Below the pieces are notes generated by a model. The model was not told where the DNA came from, ran no database searches, and worked only from the letters and a program-made list of their open reading frames with translations. Made by a program: the position numbers and the translations under genes. A stretch of DNA of 64,000 nt from Kiritimatiellia bacterium (GTDB lineage: Bacteria > Verrucomicrobiota > Kiritimatiellia > RFP12 > UBA1067). How positions within the stretch are numbered: position 1 is the first letter of the stretch; every line of letters begins with the position of its first letter. The DNA is taken from positions 26,561-90,560 of the forward strand of contig JAFPUH010000024.1 of assembly GCA_017395505.1 (NCBI GenBank), read 5' to 3'. Below are positions 8,115 through 8,268 of the stretch, one piece after another.

Positions 8115-8268
8115 TTTGTCAGCTGACAAATTATTTTTTCTCAACTGACAAATTATTTTTTCTCAGTTGACAAATTTTTATTTGTCAGTTGACAAATGAA
8201 AATATGTCAGTTGACATCCGTTGATTTGTCAGCTGGAACATGATACAATGTCAGTTGAGAAAATTTGA
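8115..8268. repeat. Seven tandem 22-bp units, each centred on the palindromic core TCAGYTGA (iteron- or operator-like array)
   Basis: The units align without gaps: tttgtcagctgacaaattattt, tttctcaactgacaaattattt, tttctcagttgacaaattttta, tttgtcagttgacaaatgaaaa, tatgtcagttgacatccgttga, tttgtcagctggaacatgatac, aatgtcagttgagaaaatttga. Confidence 0.9.

Follow-up and report, generated by a model that had tools for sequence, protein, structure and literature searches.

The fis gene of Escherichia coli provides a familiar example of an autoregulated promoter of a nucleoid-associated protein, spanned by six sites for Fis itself. Tandem repeats of 22 bp are known from lactococcal theta plasmids and from the Chlamydia plasmid, and partition sites of the sopC type consist of tandem repeats with a period of 43 bp, each of which carries a 16-bp palindrome. 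The enigmatic HU-HIG proteins, in which an HU domain is combined with an Ig-like domain, have undergone strong expansion in gut Bacteroidota and are present also in other gut phyla, but their DNA target and function are not known. From the structure 4FMR, it has been concluded that the Ig domain narrows the clasp in the Ig-fused HU-HIG proteins, which are hence considered "unlikely to bind DNA", and the clade was predicted not to consist of sequence-specific regulators (Burroughs et al. 2017, PMC5499826). Beyond that work, our literature searches turned up no study on the function of PF14848/4FMR proteins; nor did they recover an earlier description of phased arrays at HU-HIG promoters or a report, from bacteria, of the core sequence described below.

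Here, we present a locus that connects these themes. The window, that is, the 64-kb stretch of Kiritimatiellia DNA that was analyzed in its entirety, contains at 8115-8268 an array of seven 22-bp units that follow one another head to tail without gaps, each with a 12-bp dyad core, T(G/C)TCARYTGA(C/G)A (Table 1). The first-pass annotation of this DNA had described the contiguous units and their dyad cores, and the array is indeed real: TRF reports period 22 at 8115-8197 (3.8 copies, 88% matches) and at 8114-8232 (5.4 copies), along with period 44 at 8117-8266; a repeat search recovers six overlapping 44-nt copies that are spaced start-to-start by 22 throughout; the self-match of the array is 0.60 at lag 22 compared to 0.26 at other lags (z = 9.9); and TGTCAGYTGACA, at up to 2 mismatches, yields 19 strand-hits, 14 of them inside the array, versus 7.0 +/- 3.4 in shuffles, with 0 of 100 shuffles reaching 19. 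The TCARYTGA cores start at 8119, 8141, 8163, 8185, 8207, and 8251, with unit 6 showing TCAGCTGG instead, so that the core centers fall at 8122.5 + 22n, as previously noted, and the palindromes that had been pointed out in units 1, 4, and 5 are there as well. At 29.9% GC, the array is the lowest 154-bp segment within 1-41 kb (the runner-up is at 40.3%), in agreement with its description as the most A+T-rich part of the G+C-rich portion. A comparison with REP/BIME elements, confined to the window, shows one array, with only isolated, chance-level matches to the motif elsewhere in the 64 kb.

Some aspects of the geometry, however, have to be viewed differently. The spacing of 22 bp had been equated with two helical turns, which would place all sites on the same face of the DNA, but this holds only at 11.0 bp per turn, whereas at 10.5 bp, there is a drift of about 34 degrees per site. 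The perceived degradation of the array toward dinG is not decay: units 5-7 overlap a promoter (-35, spacer, -10, and start) that is conserved in the homologous loci; unit 5 is actually intact in the window and degenerate in the three homologous, gene-linked arrays (L220, L221, and L222). This rightward extended -10 promoter, overlapped by the final units of the array, has 9 of 12 consensus matches plus the TG in a consensus scan and points away from the gene for a giant secreted protein upstream of which the array had been placed.

Table 1. Features of the orphan module and the adjoining genes (window coordinates).
Feature	Position	Strand	Description
Giant secreted protein gene	2411..7732	-	1773 aa (1754 aa from the L236 start); flanking gene
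Conserved left flank of module	8083..8114	+	AAATTCAATCTCCTGCCTTGGGGCTGTAAAGA; L220 homology starts exactly at 8083
Unit 1	8115..8136	+	TTTGTCAGCTGACAAATTATTT; perfect 16-bp palindrome TTTGTCAGCTGACAAA at 8115-8130
Unit 2	8137..8158	+	TTTCTCAACTGACAAATTATTT; core TCTCAACTGACA
Unit 3	8159..8180	+	TTTCTCAGTTGACAAATTTTTA; core TCTCAGTTGACA
Unit 4	8181..8202	+	TTTGTCAGTTGACAAATGAAAA; core TGTCAGTTGACA
Unit 5	8203..8224	+	TATGTCAGTTGACATCCGTTGA; core TGTCAGTTGACA; 3' end carries bases 1-4 of the -35 hexamer
Sigma-70-type promoter	8221..8249	+	TTGATT (8221-8226), 17-nt spacer, extended -10 TGATACAAT (8241-8249); faces dinG
Unit 6	8225..8246	+	TTTGTCAGCTGGAACATGATAC; core TGTCAGCTGGAA; in the -35/-10 spacer, a repressor position
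Unit 7	8247..8268	+	AATGTCAGTTGAGAAAATTTGA; core TGTCAGTTGAGA; covers the predicted transcription start
Near-palindrome AAACCGTAGG/CCTACGGGTT	8268..8287		Inverted repeat made at the junction; includes the stop codon of dinG (8279-8281, minus strand)
Leader remnant and first half of ribosome-binding site	8269..8277	+	AACCGTAGG; gene-bearing loci go on AGG..ATG
DinG-like helicase gene	8279..10612	-	Pfam Helicase_C_2, DEAD, DEAD_2; intact; convergent with the orphan promoter; outside the module

The origin of the array becomes apparent from its homologs. The 195-bp block at 8083-8277 corresponds to positions 1342-1148 of L220, with 86% identity over 195 bp (blastn), and matches L221 with 80% identity over 163 bp; the alignment with L222 is colinear. 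The flanks of the block are unrelated, on both sides, between the window and these homologous loci. In all three of the latter, which are Kiritimatiellia contigs, the block leads directly into the SD and ATG of an HU-like gene, whereas in the window, the homology breaks off within the SD, at 8277, and is followed by the stop codon of dinG. The protein encoded downstream of the homologous block consists of 291 aa, with an HU-like and an Ig-like part, and is of the HU-HIG type. It matches the Pfam family HU-DNA_bdg (PF14848, E = 6e-10), and its AlphaFold model (pLDDT 83) contains predicted strands 5-13 and 24-28 ahead of the HU helices and a predicted beta-rich region at residues 127-271. The best PDB match in a fold search is 4FMR, the B. 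vulgatus HU+Ig protein BVU_2165 (E = 1e-11, 270-277 columns), followed by HU, IHF, and Hbb. As modeled, the protein thus includes an HU domain, an extra N-terminal hairpin, and a C-terminal Ig-like domain, as is typical of HU-HIG. The HU-like proteins match no NCBIfam or PADLOC model, and a PDB sequence search came back empty, only the fold search being positive.

Neither tblastn nor a search of all ORFs with the family profile (hmmsearch) detected a relative of the HU-like gene in the 64-kb window, so the array is an orphan. The window shares with the gene-bearing loci the homologous upstream region and the 4-7 phased dyads in register with an extended -10, and lacks the SD and ATG of a PF14848 gene after the array. 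We are therefore confident that the array is an orphaned copy of an HU-HIG promoter-operator module. The statement of the first-pass annotation that no cognate gene is adjacent holds for the window but not for the homologous loci, in every one of which a strong candidate adjoins the array. The neighbors of the array and the HU-like gene vary from locus to locus and show no homology to one another or to the giant protein, but the array and the HU-like gene stay together regardless. One contig (L227) that ends 127 bp before the module was left out of this comparison.

The same architecture recurs throughout the family. The survey encompassed 10 distinct upstream arrays, including the gene-less copy in the window, and 14 gene-bearing contigs. 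All 8 distinct family proteins for which upstream DNA was fetched are preceded by 4-7 dyad sites with a 22-bp period, and the self-match of the family arrays peaks at lag 22 (44 in L222 and L223), with lag-22 z values of 4 to 10 compared to shuffles. In the members of 280-300 aa, the dyad sites are fixed in register with TGnTAnAnT, and the extended -10 of the window has a counterpart (TGATATAAT, TGATAGAAT, TGATATACT, or TGGTATAAT), with an unchanged offset relative to the array, in L220, L221, L222, L231, L228, L229, L223, and L234. Altogether, phased dyad arrays, homologous and analogous, are found in a fixed promoter register in 10 loci, which upholds the earlier view of the array as operator-like, although not the part of it that had the array built around the giant gene.

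The cores of these arrays vary along with the proteins. Proteins that are at least 91% identical have the common core TGTCARYTGACA; at 71% protein identity (L231), the core is ATCCARYTGGAT, with the CARYTG center retained; P0018 and P0038, which are 70% identical to each other, have CTAAnTAG in common; and proteins below 50% identity come with unrelated cores, TCTCAnnTGAGA, GTTATAyAAC, and ATCCATATATGGAT. The array of L234 reads CTAATTAG. In each contig, the cognate motif is essentially confined to that contig's own array. That the core changes along with the protein points to autoregulation by the encoded protein, and given this co-variation, we consider it somewhat better than an even bet that the HU-like protein is itself the binder of the dyads. 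To our knowledge, a private phased dyad array at the promoter of every examined member of a family is apparently undescribed.

Searches farther afield were also performed and their candidates set aside. The exact pattern TTTGTCAGYTGACAAAT has 20 matches in viruses, mostly single chance matches, and among the metagenome matches listed, L220 alone is homologous. Arrays with similar TTGTCA..TGACAA palindromes in L088, L132, L166, and L201 have other periods or contexts and are not accompanied by an HU-like gene.

Thus, the array probably represents the operators of a promoter module, one which in related Kiritimatiellia drives an HU-HIG-type (PF14848) protein of 280-300 aa. One dimer would bind each 12-bp dyad in each 22-bp unit, and the five upstream units would serve for cooperative loading of the protein on A/T-rich, phased DNA. 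With unit 6 between the -35 and the -10 and unit 7 covering the start, occupancy would silence the gene's own promoter, that is, cause negative autoregulation. In the window, the HU-like gene has been lost, and the module, cut within the ribosome-binding site at 8277, directly adjoins the stop codon of dinG, which runs convergently. The orphan array, with its promoter retained, could act only in trans, as a landing site for the protein, provided that another locus encodes it, and a transcript from the orphan promoter would be antisense to the 3' end of dinG. Repression by binding, the HU-like protein as the binder, and any present activity of the orphan, be it as a decoy, a silencer, or an antisense promoter, are what we infer from this arrangement. 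The near-palindrome at the junction may be the dinG terminator because TTTCAAATTTTCTC comes next on the minus strand.

The genes around the orphan are those of a chromosome (hisS, cca, and dinG, with the S10 ribosomal operon nearby in L236). The dinG gene is full length, with relatives aligning to residues 774-776 of 777, although an exact search for its product retrieved no recorded entry, and the giant protein has no Pfam or NCBIfam match. A far sub-threshold RAYT-like match at 1199-2182, about 6 kb from the array, is the only transposase-like signal, and an Rfam search over the whole window yielded nothing at the gathering threshold. L236 is 100% identical to positions 1-13675 of the window, and in L237, where the giant protein is 84% identical, seven units likewise stand between dinG and the giant gene; the orphan layout is thus kept in two lineages of the species, with the number of units unchanged in both. 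Outside of these, 80 loci related through dinG include none with the array motif, the giant gene, or the HU-like gene, and the gene order around dinG is not conserved.

Whether the orphan still does anything can be approached through its divergence. Between the window and L237, the module differs by 3.1% (6/195), compared to 0.5% for dinG and 1.4% (5/350) for the adjacent 350 bp of non-coding DNA, and one of the changes in the module affects the -35 (TTGATT to ATGATT). This degree of divergence is in line with the orphan being under weak constraint or none. There is a substantial, if less than even, chance that the array is a non-functional relic left by a deletion that removed the HU-like gene, from the ribosome-binding site to the dinG stop, and has drifted neutrally since. 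The truncation falls exactly within the SD; the -10 is TACAAT in the window as opposed to TATAAT in 3 of 3 homologous gene-linked modules; the module has diverged about 6 times as much as the flanking genes, the change in the -35 included; and clean loss of the ORF would produce the layout of the window because the gene that comes next in L221 and L222 is convergent. Simple decay is harder to reconcile with the cores, 6 of 7 of which deviate from the consensus by no more than one mismatch, a better record than that of the three homologous gene-linked arrays (4, 5, and 1), and with the identical number of units in both lineages; moreover, the 6/195 and 5/350 substitutions do not amount to a significant excess over the neighboring non-coding DNA. 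These well-preserved cores, the best of the four homologous arrays, can be taken as a sign that the array is not a relic but a genuine trans target, an upstream activating or silencing array of the giant gene whose factor is encoded elsewhere. The location, about 60-220 bp upstream of a candidate promoter (8056) and about 380-540 bp upstream of the ATG (7732), would be suitable, seven units are kept in two lineages despite the divergence of the giant protein, the array is found in a divergent intergenic region also in L222, L228, and L231, and action of such arrays on other genes is conceivable because gene-less 22-bp arrays are present upstream of guaB and nusA in L063. Nevertheless, we consider such a role unlikely. 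The promoter of the module itself faces the opposite way, toward dinG; the module is the upstream region of an HU-like gene in L220, L221, and L222, and the array is tied to that gene in 8 other family loci, none with neighbors homologous to the giant protein; and the module evolves no slower than the neighboring non-coding DNA. The promoter that had been proposed for the giant gene, TTGCAC-17-TAAACT, is weak (7/12 consensus matches), is not reported by the consensus scan, and overlaps a terminator-like hairpin. The earlier link between the array and the giant gene is not supported.

A different kind of alternative separates the dyads from the HU-like protein: they could be bound by an unlinked regulator, or the phased A/T tracts could amount to curved upstream DNA, with the HU-like gene being only the target. 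Burroughs et al. predict no clasp-mediated DNA binding in the Ig-fused clade (PMC5499826), and A/T-rich spacers at a 22-bp phase would add curvature. Furthermore, L051, L061, and L063 (twice) contain arrays that repeat every 22 bp but are built from other units, without an HU-like gene in the fetched DNA, the scope being limited in L063 by a cut at the left end of the locus; these arrays count against the operator reading, and because of them, a different array-binding factor is possible. An unlinked regulator, however, would be expected to have one constant core, yet core similarity follows that of the adjacent proteins, and the dyad symmetry suits a homodimer such as 4FMR. Curvature alone cannot explain the 22-bp class because the arrays in L051, L061, and L063 are not A/T-rich. 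On balance, it seems improbable that either of these is the explanation. Even less credible, to the point of being nearly negligible, is that the units are replication-origin iterons, a plasmid partition site, or the transposase sites of a mobile-element end, although the direct repeats of 17-22 bp at a spacing of about 22 bp and the succession of repeats, promoter, and gene resemble iteron replicons, and tandem repeats with palindromes resemble sopC-type centromeres. In the 46 of 53 window ORFs that were scanned, there is no Rep, ParA/ParB, or transposase domain, the sub-threshold RAYT-like match excepted, and no parA/parB-type neighbor; in particular, no transposase gene adjoins the array as it would a Tn7/Mu-type end, and elsewhere in the 64 kb, the motif is at chance level. 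No DnaA box (at most 1 mismatch) is found within 850 bp, the sole box-like 9-mer in 6-10 kb being located inside dinG, at 9135, and the cumulative GC skew, after a local, shallow minimum near 9 kb, goes on declining without any sustained reversal. The neighbors are housekeeping genes, with the S10 operon close by; a search of 72,556 plasmids (PLSDB) recovered no relative of either the HU-like protein or the module, and the protein likewise has none in 50,697 phages (INPHARED) or in IMG/VR; and the gene adjacent to the array in the homologous loci encodes an HU fold rather than a winged-helix initiator fold. The suggestion of plasmid iterons or a partition site in the first-pass annotation thus finds no support in the chromosomal context, the domain content, or the plasmid databases.

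If the co-varying arrays are binding sites, each member of the family comes with a predicted cognate sequence that is directly testable, and the published prediction of non-sequence-specificity is contradicted. A bolder proposition, which we put forward as speculative and rather doubtful, is that the Kiritimatiellia HU-HIG are fast-diversifying sequence-specific binders with private 22-bp-phased dyad arrays, for which gene-less arrays are trans targets; the array of the window, next to a hypervariable giant gene, and the guaB and nusA arrays of L063 may be such targets. If true, this would be an array-based regulatory or chromatin-organizing system previously unrecognized in the phylum. For genome annotation, the immediate consequences are that an attractive connection of the array with a giant surface protein is dropped for lack of support and that an orphan promoter facing the 3' end of dinG is flagged.

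The relationship of the module to known systems is one of partial likeness. It shares with sopC a tandem array with a palindrome for a dimeric binder in every unit, but has no ParA/ParB-type genes, repeats every 22 bp as opposed to 43 bp, and is joined to a promoter. Like the iteron replicons (F, pPS10, pSC101, the lactococcal theta plasmids, and the Chlamydia plasmid), it presents 22-bp repeats followed by a promoter overlapped by related dyads and then by a gene; unlike them, its units have dyad symmetry of their own, the protein encoded next to it adopts an HU fold and not a Rep fold, and the context is chromosomal and single-gene, without DnaA boxes or plasmid relatives. The protein resembles the HU-HIG clade in having a PF14848 match, an N-terminal beta-hairpin, an HU core, a C-terminal beta-rich domain, and 4FMR as the best fold, and in combining a lack of conserved operon partners with fast sequence diversification; compared to the described HU-HIG, it belongs to Kiritimatiellia instead of Bacteroidota and is longer, 280-300 aa as opposed to about 235. 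Finally, fis differs from the module in that its sites are scattered and degenerate whereas those of the module are strictly tandem, near-identical dyads at 22 bp, and the module's protein is an HU+Ig fusion without a known DNA target, the gene for which is absent in the window. Yet, in both cases, several sites lie upstream of and overlap the core promoter of a gene for a small DNA-bending protein, with binding by the gene's own product proposed for the module, and by this likeness to fis, negative autoregulation is to be expected.

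The tandem array between the dinG stop codon and the 5' region of the gene for a giant secreted protein is a real and well-defined feature and, very probably, the promoter-operator module of an HU-HIG-type gene, present here as an orphan. The seven contiguous 22-bp units reported in the first-pass annotation are borne out by direct reading of the sequence, by TRF, which returned arrays of periods 22 and 44 over 8114-8266, by a repeat search, in which six overlapping 44-nt copies were all spaced by exactly 22 nt, and by shuffling: with up to two mismatches, TGTCAGYTGACA has 19 strand-hits (14 inside the array) against 7.0 +/- 3.4 in shuffles. 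Self-match is 0.60 at lag 22 versus 0.26 at other lags (z = 9.9). The array is also, as had been claimed, the most A+T-rich stretch of the G+C-rich part: its GC content of 29.9% is the minimum among 154-bp windows across 41 kb. In 28 units pooled from four homologous arrays, T3, T5, C6, A7, T10, G11, A12, and A14 are (nearly) invariant, and complementarity holds for positions 7/10 in all units and for 6/11 in 27.

A metagenome scan with the array unit yielded one homologous locus among the matches listed, Kiritimatiellia contig L220, where a 195-bp stretch matches the module (array plus promoter) at 86% identity; the similarity breaks off abruptly on both sides, and the flanking sequences are unrelated. 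In L220, the module continues straight into GGAGG-N7-ATG of a gene for a 291-aa protein with the Pfam domain HU-DNA_bdg (PF14848, E = 6e-10). In the AlphaFold model of this protein (pLDDT 83), an N-terminal hairpin precedes the helices and arms of the HU fold, and the C-terminal half is rich in beta structure; the top PDB match is 4FMR (E = 1e-11), an HU+Ig protein from Bacteroides vulgatus and the type example of the HU-HIG clade, followed by classical HU, IHF, and Hbb. A single-sequence search gave 24 clusters of relatives and a profile search 92, with lengths of 152-350 aa, nearly all 259-304 aa; the HU-HIG-like family has 379 representatives (E <= 0.001) among 1.84 billion proteins, and none were found in plasmids, phages, or IMG/VR.

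Upstream DNA of eight family proteins (P0001, P0002, P0003, P0005, P0006, P0018, P0038, and P0092; for P0001, to which the L220 protein is 97% identical, from contig L221) was examined, and all eight have arrays of 4-7 dyad-symmetric sites with a 22-bp period, self-match being maximal at lag 22, or 44 in contigs L222 and L223 (z of 4-10 at lag 22). Arrays of the 280-300-aa members share one register relative to an extended -10 element (TGATATAAT, TGATAGAAT, TGATATACT, or TGGTATAAT): a -35-like TTGnnn lies across the boundary between units 5 and 6, unit 6 fills the 17-bp promoter spacer, and the start region lies under unit 7, followed by SD and ATG. The register is loosest in L223, with less regular site spacing and apparently two -10 elements; for P0092, which represents a distant clade of 259 aa, four sites directly precede TTGACG-N17-TATCCT. 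The orphan promoter is the same as that of the family and is directed toward dinG.

Within this architecture, the core varies with the protein. P0001 and P0002 (at least 91% identical) have the core TGTCARYTGACA, identical to that in the window; P0003, 71% identical to P0001, keeps the CARYTG centre with new outer bases (ATCCARYTGGAT); P0018 and P0038, whose mutual identity is 70%, have ACCTAAnTAGGT and TCTAATTAGG, with CTAAnTAG in common; and below about 50% identity, the cores are unrelated (TCTCAnnTGAGA, GTTATAyAAC, ATCCATATATGGAT). The cognate motif is essentially restricted to one array per contig. An architecture that stays fixed while the core tracks the neighbouring protein, itself of a DNA-binding fold, would be expected of a cognate protein-operator pair, and the dyad sites fit a homodimer such as 4FMR. 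Burroughs et al. (2017), reasoning from 4FMR, argue that in Ig-fused HU-HIG proteins the clasp is narrowed by the Ig domain, which makes DNA binding unlikely. The HU-like protein would bind its own array and, because units 6 and 7 lie over the promoter, their occupancy would repress the gene's own promoter. The operator idea of the first-pass annotation was right: the dyad sites are phased, and homologous arrays keep a fixed register with a promoter.

Neither tblastn nor a profile search of all ORFs found an HU-HIG family gene in the 64-kb window. Homology with L220, L221, and L222, all gene-bearing, stops midway through the ribosome-binding site, of which TAGG (8274-8277) is the first half; the dinG stop codon, on the opposite strand, comes next, and dinG is full length. 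In L221 and L222, the HU-like gene and the gene downstream of it are convergent, so that loss of the ORF alone would yield the window layout. The near-palindrome at the junction, with the T-rich run that follows it on the dinG strand, may be a dinG terminator.

The DinG relatives all come from gut or rumen Kiritimatiellia MAGs, which makes the host such a bacterium. The setting is chromosomal, given cca, gmd, a ymdB-like gene, and hisS past dinG, a more distant V-ATPase subunit gene, and, in contig L236 of the same species, the S10 ribosomal operon directly past the giant gene. Through dinG, 80 related loci were compared, without array motif or conserved neighbours. Elsewhere in the window are glycosyltransferase clusters, a small defence island between two polysaccharide loci, and a low-GC O-antigen-type locus; polysaccharide genes also adjoin the HU-like loci in L220, L221, and L222.

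Coordinates of the array, its surroundings in the window, and tandem dyad arrays in other contigs
Feature	Position	Strand	Details
Array	8115-8268		seven 22-bp units, head-to-tail
Module	8083-8277		array and promoter
Orphan promoter	8221-8226; 8241-8249	plus	TTGATT, 17-nt spacer, TGATACAAT
Near-palindrome	8268-8287		AAACCGTAGG/CCTACGGGTT; includes dinG stop codon
Terminator-like hairpin	8058-8042	minus	second such hairpin; directly past array
DinG-like helicase gene	8279-10612	minus	Helicase_C_2, DEAD, DEAD_2
Giant protein gene	2411-7732	minus	1773 aa; no Pfam or NCBIfam match
327-aa ORF	1199-2182	plus	convergent with giant gene; weak match to REP-associated tyrosine transposase NF047646 (E = 9e-6, 25.7 bits, cutoff 80); no array-like palindromes found flanking it
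Perfect tandem repeat	24194-24271		39 bp x 2, ATATCACTTTTCAGCCTTCGTTTTCAAGTACGGAAATCA; directly upstream of ORF 24314-24904
Polysaccharide cluster	34981-41720
Defence island	41765-47027	minus	AbiLii (RloB) and AbiLi (AAA_21); PDC-M62 B+A pair
Polysaccharide cluster	49325-64000	minus (wholly)	GC 40-48% (the base-composition break alluded to in the first-pass annotation), strongly negative GC skew; Wzy_C, GT1/GT2/GT4, two Acyl_transf_3 genes
L061 array	13990-14200		7x ATTGGAcgggaaTCCAATGGGC; between two gene ends
L063 arrays, one unit family	89-248 and 17037-17245		7x CGTAGTCCAGCTCTTTAGACTT, ~160 bp upstream of guaB; 7x TTCGTAGTCCAGTCTTTTTTAC, ~60 bp upstream of nusA promoter
L051 array	662-750		4x GAGACCGCGGTCTC; weaker
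L088 array	11910-12020		TTGTCA-NN-TGACAA type
L132 array	1880-1935		TTGTCA-NN-TGACAA type
L166 arrays	19-150 and 389-500		TTGTCA-NN-TGACAA type
L201 array	5180-5260		TTGTCA-NN-TGACAA type

Control of the giant adhesin gene by the array, as originally proposed, is unsupported: proximity alone speaks for it, whereas the module promoter points the opposite way, the giant protein has no relative among the neighbours of the family's other loci, and the promoter proposed for the giant gene is weak, a 7/12 match coincident with the terminator-like hairpin. The suggested plasmid iterons or partition sites, and likewise transposon ends, were rejected: no Rep, Par, or transposase genes were found among the 46 of 53 window ORFs scanned, nor any nearby DnaA box, sustained skew reversal, or plasmid or phage relatives.

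For the orphaned module, two fates can be envisaged. Contig L236 is identical to the window across 13.7 kb, and L237, also of this species, has the same order of dinG, seven units, and giant gene; the orphan layout is, therefore, stable. Between the window and L237, identity is 99.2-99.5% for dinG, gmd, and cca, 98.6% for 350 bp of other non-coding DNA, and 96.9% for the module (6 changes, one in the -35 element), so that the orphan shows no strong constraint. Yet six of its seven cores are within one mismatch, more than in gene-linked arrays. The orphan may be a recent relic or a site maintained in trans. The giant gene is hypervariable inside the species, its identity to L237 declining from 97% through 84% to ~50% toward the 3' end (only 84% for the protein), and homologues elsewhere cover only 63-84% of its length.

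Nor is the window unique in carrying a gene-less array. A scan of 1.25 Mb of Kiritimatiellia DNA at every period of 15-30 found arrays at periods 15, 18, and 21 (coding-type) and 22 only; the dyad-symmetric 22-bp units in contigs L061, L063, and L051 are quite different in sequence, and no HU-HIG-like gene was found in the fetched DNA of these contigs. Given such arrays, the dyads may be bound by a factor other than the HU-like protein; alternatively, the gene-less arrays may be trans targets of HU-HIG-type proteins. Palindrome arrays with periods of ~17, 23, 22, and 44 bp also occur in the unrelated viral or metagenome contigs L088, L132, L166, and L201, in uninformative contexts and with no HU-like gene detected.

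Taken alone, the window copy is of modest interest; the trans-target question is the most interesting reading of the gene-less arrays, and the phased, co-varying arrays make the enigmatic HU-HIG protein family testable. The family-wide association of HU-HIG genes with such dyad arrays appears to be undescribed, and the interpretation of protein and array as a cognate pair is contrary to the published view of Burroughs et al. (PMC5499826).
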